Shown piece after piece: positions 2,245-56,887 of a stretch of DNA of 64,000 nucleotides (its first letter is position 1; each line of letters opens with the position of its first letter). Made by a program: the position numbers and the translations under genes. Source of the DNA: Candidatus Levybacteria bacterium RIFCSPLOWO2_02_FULL_37_18 (GTDB taxonomy: Bacteria > Patescibacteriota > Microgenomatia > Levybacterales > UBA12049); assembly GCA_001784115.1 (NCBI GenBank), contig MFPD01000011.1, positions 28,869 through 92,868 on the forward strand. The letters run 5' to 3'. The notes below the pieces were generated by a model. It was not told where the DNA came from. It worked only from the letters and a program-made list of their open reading frames with translations, and searched no databases.

Positions 2245-5200
2245 TTATTCTCTTGCTTCTTTATCTACATTTGCCTCCGGAACTATACTTGTTTTCAAAT
2301 CCCCCGTTGCAACTTCACTTGCGCCTAATTGCCTTTGCATTTCATTTGCTTCTTGTTTGACTTTTTCTTCTTGACTTGCAGACATAATCCCTTCTGTTGG
2401 TTCCGCCTCAACTATTATGGCGGGTTTTATGGGTACGACATTGAGTCCCAAAGCCTGAAGTTCTTTAATCAAAACTTTAAACGATTCAGGAACTTTTGGT
2501 GTTGGGATATCAGTCCCTTTTACAATAGCCTCAAATGCTTTTGCTCTTCCAACGACATCATCTGATTTAATGGTTAACATTTCTTGTAGTGTATAGGCAG
2601 CTCTATGAGCTTCAAGTGCCCATACTTCCATTTCTCCCAGTCTTTGTCCTCCCATTTGTGCTTTTCCACCGAGCGGTTGCTGGGTAACTAAAGAATAAGG
2701 TCCTGTAGAACGGGCATGAGTTTTATCCTCAACCATATGAATAAGTTTCATCATATATTCGATGCCCACCATAACTGGGTTTTTATACGCTTCGCCTGTT
2801 CTTCCGTCATAAAGCGTAACCTTTCCGTTTACAGGAAGACCAGCTTTTTTAAGCACAGATACGATTTTATCTTCTTTTATGTCTTCGAATACAGGAACTG
2901 CAAGCTTTGTAGAGAGTTTTTTTGCTGCCCAACCCAAATGAGCTTCTAAAAGCTGACCTAAATTCATACGAGCCAAAACCGAAATCGGAGAAATTACGAT
3001 ATCAACCGGCGTACCGTCCTCTAAACACGGCATATCTGCAACGGGTAAAATCTTTGAAATAACTCCTTTGTTGCCGTGTCTTCCTGCCAGCTTATCTCCT
3101 ACAACTACGTGTCTAAATTGGGCTACCTCAACGATAATTTTTCGAATCGCCCCCGGCTCTAATTCGTCACCCTTTTTCCTGTCCAATATCGAAACACTGA
3201 TTACTGTCCCTCTTTCCCCATGAGGTATGCGCAACGATGTGTCTCTGACTTCTCTTGCTTGCTCTCCAAAGATTGCCCGAAGCAGTCTTTCTTCTGCGGT
3301 TAGTTCTGTTTCTCCTTTTGGAGCGATTTTACCCACTAGTATATCTCCCGGTCCCACTTCGCTTCCAATAACCACAATTCCATCTTCGTCTAAATTTGCC
3401 AAATCTTCATCAGAAACATTAGGAATATCCCTTGTGGTTTCTTCCGGACCAAGTTTTGTTTCTACAACAGAAGCTTCGTATTTCTCGATATGAATTGACG
3501 ACAACACATCTTCTTTAACGAGCCTGTCGGAAATAACAATTGCATCTTCATACCCCAAGCCGTCTAAAGAAGCATACGCTATTAAAAGATTCTGTCCCAA
3601 AGCCAACTCTCCATTTTCAGACGCGGGACCATCAATTAATACATCTCCTTTTCTAACTCTTTGCCCACGAAGTACGTATAGTTTTTGCGTATACGAGGTT
3701 GCTTGTGAAGTTCGTTTGAATGATTCAATGGTATAGGTCACTTTTTGACCTTTGTCACCTTGGAATACTAAGCTACTTGCGTCAGCATGAAGCACTCTTC
3801 CATCGAATGGGGCTCTGACAACCCGATTCATAACCCCTGAGACTTCCCTTTCCATATTTGTCCCAACCACAGGGCTCTCGGGTTTAACAAGCGGTACTGC
3901 CTGACACTGCATATGGGTTCCCATAAGCGCCCTGTTTGCTTCGTCGTGATTAATAAATGGAATTAAAGAAGCCGCTGTCCCAAATACCTGTCTTGGGATG
4001 ACGTCAATGTATTCTATTTTCTCTTTGTCAACTTCTATAAATTCTCCTCTAAATCGAACAGGCACTCTCTCCGCTTCGATGGTATCTTTATCAGACAAAA
4101 CCAACGCGGCAGTTATATAATGCTCTGCTTCATCATCAGCGTCTAGGTATACAATTTCATCGGTTGCTTTTATGGTTATTTTTCCTCCTCGTTTTTCTTT
4201 TACTACTTTTCTGTACGGCGCTTCTAAAAATCCACAATCATTGACTCGTGTGTATAACGCCATGTATGTAACAAGACCAATATTAGGTCCCTCAGGAGAC
4301 CTGATTGGGCAAATTCGGGAATACTGAGAACTGTTTATATCCCGAATTGAAAATGCTGCTCGTTCTCTTGAGATTCCACCGGTTCCCATAACTGTCAGTC
4401 TGTTTAAATTATCAATTTCAGAAAGCGGATTAGTCTGATCTAAAATAGTTGATAATTGTGATGTTCTAAAAAACTCATTAATAGAAGCCATAATTGGTCG
4501 GGCATTAATCAAACTAGCAACAGATACCGGAATATCCGGCTGGATAAGACTCATACGCTCTTTAATACTTCGCTCAAGTCGTAAAACTCCTACTCGAAAT
4601 GCCGTGGTTGCAACCAATTCTCCTACTCTTCTGACTCGTCTATTGGCCAAACTGTCGATATCATCAACCGTACCCTGTCCGCTCTTCAAAAGAATTAAAT
4701 ACCCAATGGTTGCAATAATATCTTCTATTGCAAGAACTCTTTCCTCTGTGGTTCTAAAGCCTGGTACATTTGATAACTTTTTGTTTATTTTGTATCTACC
4801 AACAGTTCCTAAGTCGTATCTCCTGTTATTAAAAAATAGGCTAATAAAGTTTTCTCTTACTTTATCTAACACAACAGGCTCACCTGGGTGCATTTTTTTA
4901 AAGATTTCGATTGTGGCTTCTGTTTCGTTTTGGGTTTCGTCTTTCTCAAGGGTATTTTCGATAAACGATTTTTCACCATTTTCTATACTTGAATCTTTAA
5001 GTGCTGCAAATTTATCCAAAATGTTTTGATTTGAAGAAAGACCTAATGCTCTTAAAAAGGTAGTTACGGGAAATTTCCTTCGCCTATCGATTTTTACGCT
5101 AATCGTATCGTGCCGGGTTGTAGAAAATTCTAACCACGAACCATGAATAGGCCTAATTTCTGCTATATATAAAGGTTTTCCTGTAACCGGATCTGGCACA

Positions 5201-5643
5201 GAAGTATAAAAAACGCCCGGAGAACGGACGAGTTGGTTAACAACAGCTCTTTCAATACCATTAATAATAAAAGTACCCCTATCGGTCATTTGCGGGATAT
5301 CTCCTAAAAACACTTCTGCTGTGTGATTTTTGCCTGTTTTTTTATTAGTTAGAATTGCTTTTACGTATAAAGGAGCATCAAAAGTCAAGCCTTTTGCTAA
5401 AGCTGTAACAGGATCATTTGTGGTTTTCCCCAAACGGTAATTAGTTAAAGACAATGTCCAATTTTTTTCTGTGAAATCGTCAATTGGAGAAATTTCATGT
5501 AAAATCTCTCCGATTGCTTTTTCTTCAAACCACTTATAAGACTGTTTTTGTGCGGCAAGTAAATCCAATTGAGGCTCAATAGAGTATTTTCTTCCCCAAT
5601 TCTCTCGTACTATGTTGTTTGTTTTTGTATCTTTTTTAGCCAT
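2245..5643 (-). CDS. rpoB: DNA-directed RNA polymerase subunit beta
   Basis: 1132-aa ORF with conserved beta-subunit blocks throughout (e.g. GTHMQCQAVPL, NMEREVSGV, GDKLAGRHGNKGVISKI, MVGIEYMMKL). Conserved rpoB-rpoC adjacency. Confidence 0.97.
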   Translation of the reverse strand: MAKKDTKTNNIVRENWGRKYSIEPQLDLLAAQKQSYKWFEEKAIGEILHEISPIDDFTEKNWTLSLTNYRLGKTTNDPVTALAKGLTFDAPLYVKAILTNKKTGKNHTAEVFLGDIPQMTDRGTFIINGIERAVVNQLVRSPGVFYTSVPDPVTGKPLYIAEIRPIHGSWLEFSTTRHDTISVKIDRRRKFPVTTFLRALGLSSNQNILDKFAALKDSSIENGEKSFIENTLEKDETQNETEATIEIFKKMHPGEPVVLDKVRENFISLFFNNRRYDLGTVGRYKINKKLSNVPGFRTTEERVLAIEDIIATIGYLILLKSGQGTVDDIDSLANRRVRRVGELVATTAFRVGVLRLERSIKERMSLIQPDIPVSVASLINARPIMASINEFFRTSQLSTILDQTNPLSEIDNLNRLTVMGTGGISRERAAFSIRDINSSQYSRICPIRSPEGPNIGLVTYMALYTRVNDCGFLEAPYRKVVKEKRGGKITIKATDEIVYLDADDEAEHYITAALVLSDKDTIEAERVPVRFRGEFIEVDKEKIEYIDVIPRQVFGTAASLIPFINHDEANRALMGTHMQCQAVPLVKPESPVVGTNMEREVSGVMNRVVRAPFDGRVLHADASSLVFQGDKGQKVTYTIESFKRTSQATSYTQKLYVLRGQRVRKGDVLIDGPASENGELALGQNLLIAYASLDGLGYEDAIVISDRLVKEDVLSSIHIEKYEASVVETKLGPEETTRDIPNVSDEDLANLDEDGIVVIGSEVGPGDILVGKIAPKGETELTAEERLLRAIFGEQAREVRDTSLRIPHGERGTVISVSILDRKKGDELEPGAIRKIIVEVAQFRHVVVGDKLAGRHGNKGVISKILPVADMPCLEDGTPVDIVISPISVLARMNLGQLLEAHLGWAAKKLSTKLAVPVFEDIKEDKIVSVLKKAGLPVNGKVTLYDGRTGEAYKNPVMVGIEYMMKLIHMVEDKTHARSTGPYSLVTQQPLGGKAQMGGQRLGEMEVWALEAHRAAYTLQEMLTIKSDDVVGRAKAFEAIVKGTDIPTPKVPESFKVLIKELQALGLNVVPIKPAIIVEAEPTEGIMSASQEEKVKQEANEMQRQLGASEVATGDLKTSIVPEANVDKEARE

Positions 5644-5673
5644 TTGCTTTCTTATATTGCGGGCCGTTTACAA

Positions 5674-5702
5674 CAAAAAAAATAAGCAGTCCCACAGGAC
5701 TG
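5674..5702 (-). terminator. Hairpin (CAGUCC-ugug-GGACUG) followed by a U8 tract in the rpoB 5' leader; candidate attenuator/intrinsic terminator
   Basis: Minus-strand RNA reads agaugaCAGUCCugugGGACUGcuuauuuuuuuu. It lies 30-60 nt upstream of the rpoB ATG (5643). Confidence 0.4.
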
Positions 5703-5803
5703 TCATCTTTTAGAAAAGATAGAGTAAACTACTTATAACACACCTTGAACAGCGGTGTCAAGGCCTGAAAATATTGGTAACTGTTTACACTTCTGACACG
5801 ATT

Positions 5804-5918
5804 TTGTCATTCTGGAGGCTGAAAGCCGACTTGCCTGCCGGCAGGTAGGTAGAATCTCTCCCAAAGTTAGATGCTATCGCTACGCCGAGTCAGACTCGGC
5901 TGCGCTCCAGCATGACAA
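5804..5918. mobile_element. MITE-like palindromic element copy A (TIR attttgtcattctgg / ccagcatgacaattt)
   Basis: Terminal inverted repeat ttgtcattctggag...ctccagcatgacaa (13/14). Internal palindromes cctgccggcagg and gccgagtcagactcggc; the latter 15-mer is shared with copy B. Flanked by imperfect direct repeats aactgtttacac (5779-5790) and aactgtgaatagttacaca (5927-5945). Confidence 0.55.
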
Positions 5919-6105
5919 TTTTATTAGAACTGTGAATAGTTACACATTTGAAACTAACAAGTTGACATACCTAAGGATTTTTAATTATTGAACATTCTTT
6001 TCAAAAGAGATACCAGACGCGGTTAAATAGTTCTTCTAAATGAGACCGTAGTGGAATGGGTATTTTCAAATGGGGTTTTGTCGGTCCAACAAATCTGGTA
6101 TTTAC

Positions 6106-6474
6106 TTATTTCTGACAAAGTATGTCGAGTAAATCCATTTGCTCATGAGGAAACTCATGACTATACCCATATTTTCCAGAATCAGTGACTATATATTCAA
6201 CCGAATCATCAAGCATTAAACGAGTAAAATGAGCCAGTCTTCCATTTCCCCCACCAACTTCTAAAACTCGAATCGGTTTACCTGCTGATGCTCCTAATCC
6301 TTTCGCACGCAAATGTAAATATCGAGAAAATGCGTCAATAAACTCAACGGTTAATAGTTCGTAAAAATTCTTTCTACTCTTAGAATCTATACCAAAACAA
6401 AATAAATCCCATTCATTTTTATCAGAGGGTACGCTATGGTCAAAAACAGACCATACTTCTACAAGAGTTGGCAA
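6106..6474 (-). pseudogene. Fragment of a class I SAM-dependent methyltransferase (N-terminal part incl. motif I; no ATG start, C-terminal half missing)
   Basis: Translation contains VLEVGGGNGRLAHF (motif I, GxGxG) and the post-I acidic residue (YIVTD). The frame ends ~25 aa later. The only ATG codons are near the 3' end, and a TAG lies 3 codons upstream of the TTG used by the ORF caller. Sits between MITE-like copies A and B. Confidence 0.5.
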
Positions 6475-6555
6475 ATGCTTCGGATCATTTAATCGCTATC
6501 TTATTGCTTCTTTACTATCTACTTCCTGCTTTTCTAAAACTTCTATCATATTAAG

Positions 6556-6675
6556 ACTGTGAGTGAGACATAATTCACATTGTCATGCTGGATTTATTTC
6601 ACCGAGTCAGACTCGGTTTCAGCATCTCCATTTTATAGATTCTGAATCAAGTTCAGAATGACATTTATGTCCCAG
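6556..6675. mobile_element. MITE-like palindromic element copy B with 10-bp flanking direct repeat (tcatattaag)
   Basis: Exact 10-bp direct repeat tcatattaag at 6546-6555 and 6676-6685. Terminal inverted repeat tgagacataa (6563-6572) / ttatgtccca (6664-6673) matches 9/10. Internal ttgtcatgctgg...cagaatgacat, ccgagtcagactcgg (identical to copy A) and attctgaatcaagttcagaat palindromes. Confidence 0.6.
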
Positions 6676-7208
6676 TCATATTAAGCGTATATCAAAAGTA
6701 AATTCTTGAAAGACGTTCTTCAGATTATTGGTAGTAGCTCAAATTGAAGTAGACATTATTTCACCTTAAACATTCTTATTTACGTATAATCTAGAAAAAA
6801 TACTTGCACTAATCTAAAAACAAAAAATAGGATTGACCATGCCAGAAAAAATAGAAAAATTAGTAATGGTATTGAGATTACTCATTTTACCATTTAGGCC
6901 ACTTCGCCCATTTCGGGGCTAAAATCAAACCTATTGGGTATACAAAGATCAGAAGTAAGACAGTAATAATAGATTTTGTATCCTCAGACATTCCATGATT
7001 TTTCTGCACCATAATTTCATTAAACTCTCTCTGTATTTGTCAAGAGTCAAAAAGATCAAAAAATTGTGATGTTTTTGTGATTAGAAATCCCGTGGAAAAT
7101 TAGAAAACAAATAGACGATTAAAATCTGAATTAGTTTCAATGTTTTGAAACATTTAAACTCATTCACCTTATCTATTTTACTCTTTTAGGAAAGCTTGTA
7201 AAGGGTGT

Positions 7209-7236
7209 TTGTCTGGAATTGTGTTCGTGCTATAAT
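7209..7236 (+). promoter_or_regulatory. Candidate sigma70-type promoter with extended -10 (TGcTATAAT) for alaS; start codon only ~7 nt downstream (possible leaderless mRNA)
   Basis: tgcTATAAT at 7228-7236, weak -35 ttgtct at 7209-7214 (16-bp spacer). alaS ATG at 7243. Confidence 0.4.
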
Positions 7237-7242
7237 CTTTCT

Positions 7243-8655
7243 ATGACGGCAAAAGATATTATTGATACCTACATTTCTTTTTTCGAAGAAAGAGGACACA
7301 AAAAAATTGAAAATTCTCCGCTTGTATTGCAAAATGATCCGACAACTCTTTTCACAAGTGCCGGCATGCAGCCCTTAGTGCCATATTTGCTGGGAAAAGA
7401 ACATCCAGAAGGAAAAAGATTGGTAAATGTACAAAACTGTTTTCGCGCTCAGGATATTGATGAAGTCGGAGACAACAGACATACTACGTTTTTTAGAATG
7501 CTTGGCAATTGGAGTCTTGGGGATTATTTTAAAAAAGAAGAAGTTTCCTGGTTTTGGGAATTCTTAACCCAAAAGCTTACTATTCCAAAAGAACGGTTAT
7601 ACATAACAGTATTTAAAGGAACAAATGAAATTCCAAAAGACGAAGAAGCAGAGCAAGTTTGGAAAGAAATAATTCTACAGGAAGGAATGAATCCGAAAGA
7701 ACGGATTCTTTATTACGGTACAAAAAAAAATTGGTGGTCGCGCTCCGGAGTTCCGGAAAATATGCCTGCCGGAGAACCGGGAGGACCGGACACTGAAGTT
7801 TTTTATCGATTTAATATAGAGCATAATCCTGCTTTTGGAGATGTGTGCCACCCAAATTGCGACTGTGGCCGATTTATGGAAATTGCAAACTCAGTATTTA
7901 TGCAGTATGTTAAGCAGGAAAATGGATCATTCAAAGAGCTTCCTAAAAAAAATGTAGATTTTGGCGGAGGACTCGAAAGACTTCTTGCAGCAGTTGAAAA
8001 TATGCAGGACGTATTCCAAACCTCTCTTTTTGCTCCCATAGTTGCCGGAATTTCCCATGCAATTAACAAACCGTATTCTGAAGAATCAAAAGAAATTCGA
8101 ATTATTGCCGACCATTTTATTTCTGCCTGTTTTATTGCAGCAAATGACGTAATACCTTCTAATAAAGAACAAGGATATATTTTAAGAAGATTAATCAGAA
8201 GAGGACTTGACAGTTTTTATCAGCTGCAGGGAGGAAATCTTTCAGAGATTATCGAAACTATTGTTGATCAATATAAGAATACCGATCAGATTCTTTTAAC
8301 TAAGTTTGAACATATTAAGAACACAATTCTTGCCGAAGAAAATAGCTACAGTCAAACACGAAGAAACGCAAGGAAACTTATTACCAGAAAATATCCTTCG
8401 GCAAGCCATTCGGCCCGAGTTCAGGCCGAGGGCTTGGGGCAAGCAAGAATTGGAGATGAATTAAAAGGACAGGTTGAAATCTCGACAGAAGACGCTTTTG
8501 TGTTGTATACAGCTCACGGTCTTTCTCCTGCTCAAATTAAAAGCCTCGGGTTTTTGTTTAATGAGGATGAATTTGTACAAAAAATGAAAGAACACCAGCA
8601 GCGCTCAAAAATGTCAGGTACAAAAAAATTCGACAGAGTCAAAGAAATTAGGTAA
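7243..8655 (+). CDS. alaS: Alanyl-tRNA synthetase, catalytic/tRNA-recognition fragment only (no editing or C-Ala domain)
   Basis: MTAKDIIDTYISFFEERGHKKIENSPLVLQNDPTTLFTSAGMQPL aligns with the E. coli AlaRS N-terminus ([22 protein letters not shown]...NDPTLLFTNAGM). The C-terminal end ...FVLYTAHGLSPAQIKSLGF...EHQQRS matches E. coli ~400-460 (FRLYDTYGFPVDL...EAAMEEQRRRA). The stop immediately follows. Confidence 0.85.
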   Translation: MTAKDIIDTYISFFEERGHKKIENSPLVLQNDPTTLFTSAGMQPLVPYLLGKEHPEGKRLVNVQNCFRAQDIDEVGDNRHTTFFRMLGNWSLGDYFKKEEVSWFWEFLTQKLTIPKERLYITVFKGTNEIPKDEEAEQVWKEIILQEGMNPKERILYYGTKKNWWSRSGVPENMPAGEPGGPDTEVFYRFNIEHNPAFGDVCHPNCDCGRFMEIANSVFMQYVKQENGSFKELPKKNVDFGGGLERLLAAVENMQDVFQTSLFAPIVAGISHAINKPYSEESKEIRIIADHFISACFIAANDVIPSNKEQGYILRRLIRRGLDSFYQLQGGNLSEIIETIVDQYKNTDQILLTKFEHIKNTILAEENSYSQTRRNARKLITRKYPSASHSARVQAEGLGQARIGDELKGQVEISTEDAFVLYTAHGLSPAQIKSLGFLFNEDEFVQKMKEHQQRSKMSGTKKFDRVKEIR

Positions 8656-14048: not shown

Positions 14049-14125
14049 AAAACTGTCATTGCGAGGAACTTATGTTCCGAAGCAATCTCTAATTGAGACT
14101 GCTTCGCTCCGCTCGCAGTGACAAG
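14047..14125. terminator. Compound hairpin element (TGTCAT...ATGACA-bounded) between convergent mltG and ytxH-like genes; likely bidirectional terminator
   Basis: aaaactgtcattgcgag...ctcgcagtgacaagtttt outer inverted repeat with nested ggaacttatgttcc and gaagcaatctc/gagactgcttc stems. Sits exactly between the stop codons of the convergent genes. Confidence 0.5.
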
Positions 14126-14916: not shown

Positions 14917-15981
14917 CTATTCAAGAGGTATGTATTCATTGGCTGAATGAATTACCTCCTTTACACCTGGTCCTAAAACAACTGCTTCGATTCCATGTTG
15001 AGCAAAAAATACTTGATCTGTTGACCCAAGAGAAGTTGTAATAGATAGTTTTGGAAAAAACTTTTTCATTTTCTTTACGACTTCATTGTTACTAGAAATA
15101 TATATTGGTTCAATTGGATTTTTTAGAAATGAGGTGATAATTTCTTCTCCTACTGTTTTTTTAAGTAACTCTAATAATTTTCCGTGAAGCTTCGGGGTTG
15201 TTCTTATATCAAGAGTTACAAAACAAGCGCTTGGAATTTTGTTAATTGATTCACCAGATGTATAAATACCGGTAATATTAAGACTTGGTTCTCCTAATAT
15301 ATAATCCTCAAATTCTATCTGCCAATTCTTAAACTCTTTTTTTATTTTTCCTAGTGTGGCTAAAAATTTTTCAATAGCATTATCAGAAAAATCATGTTGT
15401 TTTGCTCCGTGACCAGCTTTTCCCAATGCTTGAATTTTGATAAACGCATTTCCTCTATGACCAATTTCTATAGAAGAAAGATTAGTCGGTTCTCCAACAA
15501 TCGCAAAAATTTTCTCATACTGTCATACTGTTTAAAGTATTTAGTTTTTTTAAACCACCTCAAAAAAATTTTGTGTTCCCAAACCATCAGTTTCTTCATT
15601 ACAAACAAATGTAAACCAAACATCAAGTGGAGAATTTTGTAAAGATTTTGCTAAAAGAAGCATTGCTGCGATTGCTCCTTTATTATCACTTGCTCCCAAT
15701 CCATACAGTTTTCCATCAAAAATTTTTCTTTCTAACGAACTACCTTCTATAGTATCCATGTGCGCATTAAAAATAATGCACTTGTTTTTATTTTTTCCTT
15801 TGAAACAAATTACTACATTTCCATGTAGAAGTTTTGCTGGAATATTATTTTGTTTACAAAAATTCAAAATAAAATTTGTGAGCTTTTTTTCCTGTCCAGA
15901 AGGAGAATAGATTTGAACCAGATTCTGTAAAAGTTTTTCAGGATTCATAGTGTTCTCCTTTTCCGCCAAAAAGTTTTTCAC
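14917..15981 (-). pseudogene. M20 family metallopeptidase (ArgE/DapE-like acetylornithine deacetylase-type) interrupted by four clustered in-frame stop codons
   Basis: N-part (15550-15981) has M20 catalytic motifs (NAHMDTIEG, GASDNKGAIAAM, CNEETDGLG). C-part resumes in the SAME frame with ...QYEKIFAIVGEPTNLSSIEIGHRGNAFIKIQALGKAGHGA. Between them lie TAA (15550-52), TAA (15541-43), TAA (15532-34), TGA (15523-25), with an exact 8-bp tandem duplication catactgt|catactgt at 15516-15531. Confidence 0.7.
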
Positions 15982-16191
15982 TTTCTTTTTTTGTTTTCAA
16001 TTTTGCATCAGTTATTCTTCTAATGTTAAAGTGCGTCCAATCGCTATATTTTTTTACGAGGATTTTTTTGAACGATTTCTTGTTTGAAAAGCATTAGTAT
16101 ATGAACCTTCGTTACCCATAAATCATACAAAACCAATTTCTGGTCTAATTCTTTTTGCTTTTCCGAAATAATAAAATGATCCGTGTTCATA

Positions 16192-16969
16192 CTATTTTTT
16201 TTGCATTAAATATAACAGTATTGCCATTTGTGCCCACATCCTATTTTCTGCCTGATCTAAGACAATTGAATTCTTACTATCCAAAACTTCATCAGTAACT
16301 TCAACATTTCTTCTTACTGGCAAACAGTGCATAAAATATGCATTATTCGTTAGTTTCATTTTTTTAGAATCAACAATCCAATTTTTTAATCCTTCTCTGA
16401 TTTTTTTCTCTCTTTCCCAATTTCCGTAATAAGACAAAGCTCCCCAACTTTTAGCACATACCACCTCTGCATCTTTAAAACTTTCTTCCATATTATTTGA
16501 AAATGACAATCTTCCTTCTGCTTCTTGTGATCTTTTTTTCATTGTTTTAACAGTTTCCTCATCTAATTCCCACCCTTTAGGATAAGTAACTGTTACGTCC
16601 ATCCCTAAATCACATGCAGATAAAATTTGAGAATTCGGTGTTGCAATCGGTAATGCTTTCGGATGATAAACCCATGTAAGCACACATTTTTTATTTTTTT
16701 GCATTACCAAGTTTTTCTTTAATTGTCATAGCATCACCCAATCCTTGACATGGATGAAACACGTTAGACTCCATATTAATTACTGGAACTGAGGAATATT
16801 TCATGAATGATTTTACAACAGTATCTTTTTTTAATTCTTCCCAAGCTTTAACATTCACACTCTCAGTTGAACTTGTAATTAATTCGCTTGATCTTATTGC
16901 CAATCCATCACAGTATCTAGATAAAACACCAGATGCTTCTTTTACATGCTCAATGGTATTCTTATTCAT
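16192..16969 (-). pseudogene. argF: Ornithine carbamoyltransferase remnant (N-terminal ~80 aa missing, internal frameshift near 16691-16710)
   Basis: Two overlapping ORFs: 16691-16969 (...SRYCDGLAIRS...VPVINMES...HPCQGLGD) and 16192-16710 (...HCLPVRRNVEVTDEV...). Upstream in-frame sequence (16970-17040) hits a TAA and is not OTC-like. The STRTR carbamoyl-phosphate-binding region is absent. Confidence 0.7.
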
Positions 16970-17009
16970 AGCTACGCCGTCATTAAATTCAAAAGTATAA
17001 CTACCATCC

Positions 17010-17371
17010 CAGGCATTGAGCCAATGATTGCATCTGCAATTTTAGGAGAGATTGGGGACATTAAAAGATTTCCCAATGTTCCATCTCTAATTGCTTATGC
17101 AGGACTGGACCCCACTACCTTTGAATCGGGAAGCAGCATCACAAAACACAGGAAGCTTTCTAAGAAAGGCTCTAAGTATTTAAGAACTGCACTATGGCAG
17201 GGTACTGTTTACTCTTTGGTACATAATCCCAACTTAAAAGCATTCTATGACAAGAAGCTCTCTGAGGGAAAACCAAAACAAGTAGCTTTAGGTGCTGTGA
17301 CCAACAAACTTACCAGGATTATTTATGGCATCCTAAGATCTGGTCAAGATTATCAACTAGATTTTAGTTAG
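17010..17371 (+). mobile_element. IS110-family transposase C-terminal fragment (Transposase_20 domain only)
   Basis: IPGIEPMIASAILGEIGDIKRFPNVPSLIAYAGLDPTTFESGSS...GSKYLRTALWQGTVYSLVHNPNLKAFYDKKLSEGKPKQVALGAVTNKLTRIIYGIL is the IS110-family C-terminal signature. No N-terminal DEDD domain upstream (that space is occupied by the argF remnant). Confidence 0.75.
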
Positions 17372-17542
17372 ATCCAATATCTTGTTAAAGTGCTAAATCT
17401 TTACTCCTTAAATTGGAGTAAATTGTTAGTGTCTTTTTTAGTACTCATACTGCTATCCATTTTTGATACTTGACATTTTATAGCTAGTCTTTGAACCACT
17501 ATTCTAGTTCAAGAGTGTAACCGATGTATCTCATCTTCTGCA

Positions 17543-17598
17543 TGTCATTCAAACTCGATTCAGAATTTCTAAGATCCTGAAATAAACTCAGGATGACA
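17543..17598. repeat. TGTCAT...ATGACA-bounded hairpin element (copy E)
   Basis: tgtcattcaaactcgattcagaatttctaagATCCTGAaataaacTCAGGATgaca. Same terminal motif and TTCAGAAT content as elements A-D. Confidence 0.4.
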
Positions 17599-17606
17599 AG
17601 AAGTAT

Positions 17607-18239
17607 TTACTTTACCTCCACGTGTCTCTCGATTTTTGTTTCTTTGCCGAATCGATTTACAGCCCGAATTACGATTATTGACTTACCTAAGAATACGTCA
17701 ACTGTTTTTTTAAACATTCCCTTTTCTTCCAAAAATACAGCATTATTATTAATATACACTGTTACATTGGAATCTGTTTTGCCAATAATTTGCACAGATG
17801 AACCGTTAAGCACTACTCCTTCTTTTGGACTTGTTACTTCAAGCGGTGGAGCTAAAAATGCGTACCGATTTTGATAAAAAATATAAGTTACCAACAATAG
17901 TAACAATATAACAATAGTAACAATTGTCCGACTTAACCTTGTTCTATGAATAGAAAAATCCTGTCTTCCTACAAGACCTTCAGGTAAAACTCTATATATT
18001 TTTTCTTCATCAAATTCCCTTCTAAAAAGAGCCATGGTTTCTTTTTCCGGAAGTCCAAGATATTCAATATAATTACGAACAAATCCCTGGGCGTATGCTC
18101 GTGACGGAAGTTTGTTATATTCCCCTTTTTCTATTGCGGAAAGAAATTGAGGTTTAATTTTTATTGCCTTTGATACATCTTCCAAGGTTAAACCTTTTTT
18201 ACTGCGTGCGTCAAAAAGAATCTGACCAACATGAATCAT
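17607..18239 (-). CDS. rodZ: RodZ-like protein (XRE-type HTH + TM + periplasmic domain)
   Basis: HTH (GQILFDARSKKGLTLEDVSKAIKIKPQFLSAIEKGEY), single TM (IVTIVILLLLLVTYIF) and C-terminal beta-rich domain. Start likely at MIHVG (complement of 18237-18239). Confidence 0.6.
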   Translation of the reverse strand: MIHVGQILFDARSKKGLTLEDVSKAIKIKPQFLSAIEKGEYNKLPSRAYAQGFVRNYIEYLGLPEKETMALFRREFDEEKIYRVLPEGLVGRQDFSIHRTRLSRTIVTIVILLLLLVTYIFYQNRYAFLAPPLEVTSPKEGVVLNGSSVQIIGKTDSNVTVYINNNAVFLEEKGMFKKTVDVFLGKSIIVIRAVNRFGKETKIERHVEVK

Positions 18240-32861: not shown

Positions 32862-32954
32862 ACGTTAATGATTGTCATTCTAAACTAGTTTCAGAATCTA
32901 TTTTTAGTATAGGTTTTTTGTTAACAAATTACAACGAACTTGAACATGAAGAAT

Positions 32955-56690: not shown

Positions 56691-56706
56691 TAAATCCTCC
56701 TCCAGT

Positions 56707-56811
56707 CCTGACATTACCCCAGCTTTGCTTCAAATCGTCATTCTGGAAAGCAACGACTTTTCCAGAATCAGATTCTGGACAAGCCAGAATGACAAAGTGG
56801 GATAATATCAG
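56707..56811. mobile_element. MITE-like palindromic element copy C (TIR tgacattacccc/gggataatatca; flanking imperfect direct repeat cctccagtcc/cctccaatcc)
   Basis: Terminal IR 10/12, nested hairpins gtcattctggaaa/tttccagaat and attctgg/ccagaat ending ccagaatgacaa (same terminal motif as copy A). Direct repeats at 56697-56706 and 56812-56821. Confidence 0.55.
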
Positions 56812-56887
56812 CCTCCAATCCCTTTGACAAAAGATATAAAACCTCCTAGACTAATTAAAGGCGTTATGTGTAAACGTCTTGTTTTGT

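Follow-up and report, generated by a model that had tools for sequence, protein, structure and literature searches.

We analysed a 64,000-nucleotide stretch of DNA (hereafter the window) from Candidatus Levybacteria bacterium RIFCSPLOWO2_02_FULL_37_18, which represents a groundwater population of Candidatus Levybacteria (Patescibacteria) and is AT-rich, with a GC content of 36%. Three short non-coding elements in the window, A, B and C, share one core, a head-to-head (HH) dimer of repetitive extragenic palindromic (REP) units carrying CGTC or TGTC tags, and differ in the outer arms that surround it. Element C is a true MITE (miniature inverted-repeat transposable element) derived from an insertion sequence (IS) of the IS4 family, as it retains both ends of the IS and is flanked by a 9-bp target-site duplication (TSD). 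Taken together, the evidence makes it likely that a DDE transposase acting in trans on the arms moved C, and probably B too, as a MITE whose body would be the REP dimer.

The core contains the motif TGTCATTCTGG. When up to one mismatch is allowed, this motif is present six times in the window, arranged as three inverted pairs at 5805/5917 (A), 6581/6663 (B) and 56736/56794 (C). Shuffled sequences contained this motif 0.98 times on average and none of 100 shuffles reached six. The 15-mer CCGAGTCAGACTCGG is found at 5885 in A and at 6602 in B, and the elements are far more stably folded than shuffled sequence (z values from -4.2 to -5.1). Each REP unit opens with a YGTC tag, followed by a stem arm that begins with AT (ATTCTGG or ATGCTGG); after the loop comes the complementary arm, which ends in AT and is followed by a C. 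Every element contains two such units in inverted orientation with their tags facing outwards, and TGTCAT…ATGACA corresponds to the outer edges of the dimer. As a whole, the core would be able to fold into a long hairpin or cruciform.

A preliminary description of this DNA interpreted TGTCATTCTGG/CCAGAATGACA as the shared terminal motif of three copies of one MITE family. All the sequence features it named (the motif, the 15-mer, the repeats and the quoted arms) are located where it had placed them, and the motif does occur in inverted pairs. However, it belongs to the internal core: it is the tag and stem of a CGTC/TGTC-tagged REP unit and not a transposon terminus. Nor are the three elements copies of a single family, because their outer arms differ; A, B and C carry three different arm types. 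These arms form a second layer, wrapped around several of the dimers in the Levybacteria genome. The count of three was also too low: A, B and C are real, but the window contains three further REP loci (D, E and F), and five of these six loci are HH dimers. The description of the elements as non-autonomous mobile repeats was borne out. For C, its status as a MITE is demonstrated by terminal inverted repeats (TIRs), the 9-bp TSD, a partner IS and sister copies at unrelated loci.

Element C spans 104 bp (56708–56811). Its IRL-type end (56708–56735, CTGACATTACCCCAGCTTTGCTTCAAAT) is followed by the core (56736–56794) and by an IRR-type end (56793–56811, CAAAGTGGGATAATATCAG) that overlaps the tag; the outer arms read CTGACATTACCCCA… and …TGGGATAATATCAG. 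The element is bounded by the TSD copies CCTCCAGTC (56699–56707) and CCTCCAATC (56812–56820), which match at 8 of 9 positions. A combination of TIR and duplication such as that seen at C was obtained at 5 of 3000 random window positions. The flanking repeat CCTCCAGTCC/CCTCCAATCC and the arms TGACATTACCCC/GGGATAATATCA reported earlier for this element are present, but the TSD of the C family measures 9 bp rather than 10. No other copies of the arms of B or C were identified in the window.

The preliminary description had also proposed a search for an autonomous partner with matching TIRs, and for C such a partner was found in metagenomes, where a scan with the 20-nt terminus of C identified 61 loci. 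The full-length partner is represented by 12 elements of 1324–1414 bp with the same termini and an open reading frame (ORF) of ~360 aa, three of them with perfect 9/9 TSDs. A further copy, from a genome of 35% GC that was also detected in Rifle samples, is flanked by the TSD CACTATGAC and brings the IS copies with 9/9 duplications to four. The transposase of this IS scores 163.5 bits against the NCBIfam IS4-family model NF033591 (cut-off 152) and matches Pfam DDE_Tnp_1 (PF01609; 9.7e-13). More than 500 homologs of this transposase were retrieved, nearly all on contigs of about the size of the IS, as expected of a multi-copy element. The ends of C (CTGACATTACCCCAGCTTTGCTTCAAAT and CTGATATTATCCCACTTTG) match those of the IS (CTGACATTACCCCASTTTTGCYTCAAA and CTGACATTACCCCACTTTG), and in the MITEs, C included, the subterminal sequences specific to IRL (…CCCASTTTTGCYTCAAA) and to IRR (…CCCACTTTG) are both preserved. 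Element C was most likely moved in trans by an IS4-family DDE transposase in a cut-and-paste reaction, with the REP dimer as its body.

Including C, we identified 21 MITE-size elements (104–177 bp), each with exactly one REP dimer between its arms. Their 9-bp flanks are identical in eight cases and match at 8 of 9 positions in three, C among them. At locus L141, on a 163-kb contig of 36% GC, a 74-nt stretch that runs from the left arm through unit 1 into the beginning of unit 2 is 100% identical to C and lies within different flanks, which indicates that arm and core of C recently moved as one piece. These sister elements bear on the alternative that REP dimers entered the middle of minimal MITEs or palindromes that were already in place, at the apices of hairpins, so that arms and cores have separate histories. 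Sister MITEs from different samples share their TIRs while their cores differ in the stem (ATTCTGG, ATTGC, ATCCC), as repeated acquisition would predict; the REP loops themselves contain nested mini-palindromes; and inverted repeats of at least 9 nt are enriched around the bare dimers of other genomes, where they flank 9 of 78 compared with 6 of 310 control positions. The joint movement of arm and core over 74 nt argues against this sequence of events, as does the fact that none of the 21 MITE-size elements is without a core. We regard later acquisition of the core as the less likely course but a real possibility beside its carriage as part of the moving MITE.

Element B (6556–6675) is composed of a left arm (6556–6580, ACTGTGAGTGAGACATAATTCACAT), an REP HH dimer core (6581–6663) and a right arm (6664–6675, TTTATGTCCCAG). 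It has a different TIR, ACTG[TGAGT]GAGACATAA versus ACTGGGACATAA, in which 11 of 12 positions match and the left arm contains a 5-nt indel. In agreement with the preliminary description, B is flanked by the exact 10-bp direct repeat TCATATTAAG, at 6546–6555 and 6676–6685. The left copy, which reads CTTAATATGA on the minus strand, includes the native start codon of a pseudogene. Of 310 control positions, 5 had an exact direct repeat of at least 9 nt within 40-nt flanks, and no such repeat was as long as 10 nt. A second B-type element, with the arms ACTGGGACATAAA and ACTGGGTCACAA around an REP dimer, was found at locus L135. Five matches to the B-type TIR in viral contigs lacked REP cores and were dismissed as chance; the likeness between the tips of the B-type and C-type TIRs (CTG[GG]ACAT…) was too weak and was not used.

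The pseudogene next to B (6023–6549, minus strand) corresponds to a 253-aa protein and was delineated by tblastn with an intact ortholog (L127:57-818). Its ATG lies at 6549–6547 and is followed by a TAG at codon 18; the N-terminal part extends down to ~6130. Residues 1–137 are retained at 47% identity to the ortholog and residues 214–249 at 58% in another frame (6139–6032), whereas residues ~138–213 (~76 codons) have been lost in an internal deletion accompanied by a frameshift. The C-terminal 38 codons are located at 6139–6026 and the stop codon at 6025–6023. In the closest relative found, that of L127, whose alanyl-tRNA synthetase (AlaRS) is 75% identical, the intact 253-aa gene occupies the same place, divergent from alaS and 66 nt apart from it. 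The preliminary description reported here a start-less, C-terminally truncated class I methyltransferase fragment (6106–6474). The gene is indeed dead, but it is larger than this, has an ATG, and combines an internal deletion with a recognisable C-terminus. The small ORF 6106–6474 had a sole database match, to a protein from 'Candidatus Levybacteria bacterium RIFCSPHIGHO2_12_FULL' labelled hypothetical. The methyltransferase assignment is based on an S-adenosylmethionine (SAM)-methyltransferase-like motif I (VLEVGGGNG) and sub-threshold Pfam matches (E = 0.025–0.2), and no solved homolog of the protein was found; we refer to it as methyltransferase-like.

Because the left copy of the 10-bp repeat holds the ATG and the other copy lies beyond the 120-bp element, B most likely entered directly 5' of the methyltransferase-like gene's start codon, duplicating 9–10 bp of the target. 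Such an insertion would have cut the ORF off from its translation and transcription signals and may have led to the decay of the gene. With its early stop, deletion and frameshift, the pseudogene confirms the earlier view of a decaying locus upstream of rpoB.

Element A is a composite of 5777–5943, with a left arm (5777–5804, GTAACTGTTTACACTTCTGACACGATTT), a core (5805–5917) and a right arm (5918–5943) ending in GAATAGTTAC. Unit 1 of the core (5805–5856) has a TGTC tag, the stem ATTCT/AGAAT and a loop with the nested palindrome CTTGCCTGCCGGCAGGTAGG; unit 2 (5871–5917), on the other strand, has the stem ATGCT/AGCAT and a loop with CCGAGTCAGACTCGG. The element is inverted relative to B, as a 14-nt exact match between the two lies on opposite strands and the 15-mer is found in the corresponding unit. 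Its flanks form an inverted pair of about 70% likeness, GTAACTGTTTACAC…TTCT… versus GTAACTATTCACAG…TTCT…. The 'aactgt..ttacac' repeat previously taken for a target duplication around A is a by-product of this arm, which is partly self-symmetric and recurs elsewhere: A-type arms are present beside REP units at loci L141 and L170, and a degenerate version occurs at D. Elements A and D carry a third arm type, with no duplication detected. We also observed, at L141:6530-6609, a dimer with a C-type left end followed by an A-type arm and another REP unit (GTCATCCTAAACG…), at which point the sequence covered ends; arms of different types can thus lie side by side in clusters.

Among the remaining REP loci of the window, D (17543–17598) is a degenerate dimer with a weak fold, whose unit 2 has the compensatory stem variant ATCCTGA/TCAGGAT. 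F (14054–14123) is a bare HH dimer that has stems of the ATTGCGAGG type, lacks arms and lies between convergent genes, and E (32873–32899, plus strand) is a single unit, TGTCATTCTAAACTAGTTTCAGAATCT, downstream of a minus-strand gene. All REP units in the window are tagged TGTC or CGTC. Every stem begins and ends with AT (ATTCTGG, ATGCTGG, ATCCTGA, ATTGC, ATCCC), and stems vary between copies yet remain complementary (ATTCTGG, ATCCTGG, ATTGC, ATCCC, ATTCC). They measure 5–10 bp and enclose loops of 5–36 nt, several with nested palindromes. In nearly all units a C follows the stem and the subsequent bases vary, CTC being commonest and CAG, CTG and CCC also occurring. The tiny perfect palindromes nested in the loops recur in other genomes, as CCGAGTCAGACTCGG and its relatives TCGAGTCTGACTCGA, GAGAGCTCAGCTCTC and TCGAGCTCAGCTCGA, together with CCTGCCTGCCGGCAGGCAGG-like inserts (window 5885–5899, 6602–6616 and 5829–5850; L136:5535, L086:1848, L141:6439 and L016:3094), and resemble one more layer of nested mini-elements.

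The properties of these loci could also be explained if the elements were conserved functional hairpins that do not move and are kept in place by selection, for instance as bidirectional terminators, mRNA stabilisers or structured small RNAs. Stable folds and compensatory changes in the stems would be expected in this case, and the genomic positions are suitable, with C, E and F just downstream of genes and A between co-directional genes. Yet the same element is found at unrelated loci, TSDs are present, B stands in front of a dead gene, and no Rfam family was matched: none over the whole window at the gathering threshold, and chance matches to snoRNA and miRNA families only at E-values up to 10 over 5644–7218. 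An origin of this kind is very unlikely in our assessment. A role as terminator acquired after insertion may exist and is compatible with mobilisation as MITEs.

Scanning the dimer pattern over one genome per bacterial species gave a listing of at least 118 loci, of which ~44 would be chance matches by our own estimate. Among the matches listed, the dimer is present in Levy-, Roizman-, Curtiss-, Davies-, Gottesman-, Berkel-, Moran- and Saccharibacteria as well as in Bacteroidota, Ignavibacteria, Nitrospirota, Cyanobacteria, Chloroflexota, Firmicutes, Actinobacteria and Proteobacteria. Although a complementary 3' terminus was not part of the pattern, 81 unique matches among those listed have one; in these, GTCAT is preceded by T 50 times, by C 28 times, by A 3 times and never by G. 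All-against-all clustering of ORFs at 118 of the listed loci identified no gene family enriched beside the dimers, which is negative evidence only; an initially considered association with small GIY-YIG genes was unsupported by the same clustering. Exact direct repeats in the 40-nt flanks of 78 dimers from other genomes were no longer than those of controls. Seven Ignavibacteria loci (L035, L046, L052, L055, L077, L112 and L115) contain the same dimer core between another conserved arm pair, TAAGTCACCTTACGCA … TGCGTAAGGTGA, showing that lineage-specific arms around the core are not unique to Levybacteria.

The missing TSDs at bare dimers are in line with a different mode of spread, in which REP doublets are copied on single-stranded DNA by a REP-associated tyrosine transposase (RAYT) or an IS200-type Y1 transposase, the arms are host palindromes and the direct repeats are incidental. 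This is the mode of the REP doublets forming hairpins (REPINs), in which inverted doublets with outward tags are likewise found, and dimers within longer palindromes have been described for CGTC-tagged repeats (Di Nocera, De Gregorio & Rocco 2013; PMC3733652). However, the tag is YGTC instead of GTAG, the same study found no RAYT with CGTC repeats, and no gene family is enriched at the 118 listed loci. Such copying would also leave unexplained that the arms of C are both ends of an IS4-family IS with the TSD length typical of that family, and that the repeat around B is exact over 10 bp. No Y1 transposase was present among the window ORFs scanned or annotated. We consider a REPIN-like origin improbable.

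Several observations weigh against mobilisation of these elements as MITEs. At A we detected neither the combination of TIR and TSD nor any target duplication. The B-type element of L135, the sole other one seen, has flanks without a duplication, and the true duplication of B could measure as little as 5 bp, because the TCATA in its repeat resembles the terminus of the L135 element. The comparison of empty and filled sites proposed in the preliminary description did not succeed, as the empty site expected for B (CTTCTATCATATTAAGCGTATATC) had no match in the metagenome collection. Eight metagenome contigs with identical rpoB, each at least 99.93% identical to the window, all carry the elements and show no presence/absence polymorphism. 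The sister MITEs of C were recovered with a pattern that fixes the TIR, so the conservation of their TIRs is partly by construction, and no IS4 transposase is encoded in the 64-kb window, the rest of the genome having been outside the search. Finally, none of 77 dimers from other genomes has a TIR (at least 8/10) with a 9-bp duplication (at least 8/9) within 80 nt. Packaging of the REP dimer in a MITE is therefore a special case. This route does not account for the bare dimers, which comprise the 77 from other genomes as well as the window loci F and E.

Elements A and B and the gene remnant between them occupy the space between the divergent genes rpoB (2245–5643, minus strand) and alaS (7243–8655, plus strand). 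The latter is short: it encodes an AlaRS of 470 aa that lacks the tRNA_SAD domain. Most AlaRS homologs of Levybacteria have ~600 aa and contain this domain, and a minority, the closest relative included, have 450–462 aa. Between element B and alaS (6686–7242), ~560 nt contain no convincing ORF, compared with the 66 nt that separate the two divergent genes of the closest relative. A terminator-like hairpin readable on both strands is located at 5686–5720, ~40 nt upstream of the rpoB start codon, and a small TGTCAT-tagged hairpin (5701–5720) abuts it. The placement of C between rpsT and pilN holds for rpsT, while pilN is weakly supported (E = 0.0058) and is followed by pilO. No tRNA or tmRNA genes were identified in the window.

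The region 14917–17607 is a series of broken genes, and the dimer D lies 170 nt downstream of the last of them. A peptidase M20 is split into two ORFs (14917–15426 and 15550–15981), an ornithine/aspartate carbamoyltransferase is represented by its C-terminal half (16192–16710), and an IS110-family transposase by its C-terminal Transposase_20 domain (16946–17371). REP sequences have been described as insertion sites of IS110-family elements (PMC3184786).

Hairpin repeats of the REP type and MITEs are commonly handled as separate classes; here, an REP dimer constitutes the whole body of an IS4-derived MITE whose family shows clean 9-bp duplications of the target, and the same core is found in at least three arm types within one small Patescibacteria genome. 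These data extend the CGTC-tagged superfamily to the candidate phyla radiation and provide a local record of an insertion, most likely at the start codon of a later-decayed gene directly upstream of rpoB. We tentatively suggest that, at least in Patescibacteria, REP dimers may spread as bodies of MITEs under the action of DDE transposases of the IS4 family (and others), or may home into the centres of such palindromic MITEs. If true, this would be the first concrete mobilisation route for the orphan CGTC/TGTC REP superfamily and would explain why the same core occurs under different arms. No new principle is involved, since the REP core and the IS-derived MITE are both of known kinds; the main interest lies in the link between an orphan superfamily and an identifiable transposase family. 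Literature searches found no paper on the TIR string CTGACATTACCCCA, nothing relevant on MITEs in Patescibacteria, and primer coincidences only for the REP motif strings.

The closest known counterpart of the core is the superfamily of CGTC-tagged REPs, which includes dRS3 of Neisseria and RPE-4 and RPE-6 of Rickettsia (Di Nocera, De Gregorio & Rocco 2013; PMC3733652). In these repeats the CGTC tag is often TGTC, A-T and T-A are almost always the first pairs of the stem, the tail is short with the consensus CCA, HH dimers with the tags outside predominate, some dimers are nested in longer palindromes, and neither a dedicated transposase nor a RAYT is associated (PMC3733652). The window repeats are alike in their unpaired CGTC or TGTC tag, first A-T and T-A pairs, putative short unpaired tail and mostly HH dimers, in their intergenic position, often downstream of genes, in the absence of a dedicated transposase and in the placement of some dimers inside longer palindromes. 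They are unlike them in that stems of 5–10 bp enclose loops of 5–36 nt with nested palindromes, compared with stems of 8–9 bp and loops of 4–5 nt, values that define the four families of that study and not the superfamily. Furthermore, the tail is C plus variable bases instead of CCA, the host phylum Patescibacteria is outside the five phyla listed there for CGTC repeats, and some of the window dimers are bounded by IS4-type TIRs and TSDs.

REPINs and their RAYTs (Bertels & Rainey 2011; PMC3116915) resemble the present elements in that two inverted REPs form a long hairpin and singlets are decayed remnants. They differ in the tag (GTAG in REPINs, YGTC here), in having a single-copy Y1 transposase partner and no TSD, and in being lineage-specific rather than distributed across phyla (PMC3116915). 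The IS-derived MITEs, among them Nezha (with ISNpu3), Correia/NEMIS and RUP (PMC3184786), are likewise short and non-coding, share TIRs with autonomous IS, are flanked by direct repeats, have a strong predicted hairpin and occur near genes. In contrast to these, the body of the C-type element is a cross-phylum REP HH dimer and not a remnant of the interior of the IS.

The partner of C conforms to the IS4 family: its DDE transposase scores above the cut-off of the NCBIfam IS4 model, its termini start with CTGA, and its duplications are 9 bp long. The reference members IS10 and IS50 have CTGA-type termini and 9-bp TSDs. The partner IS itself is ~1.4 kb in length and derives from uncultured groundwater bacteria.

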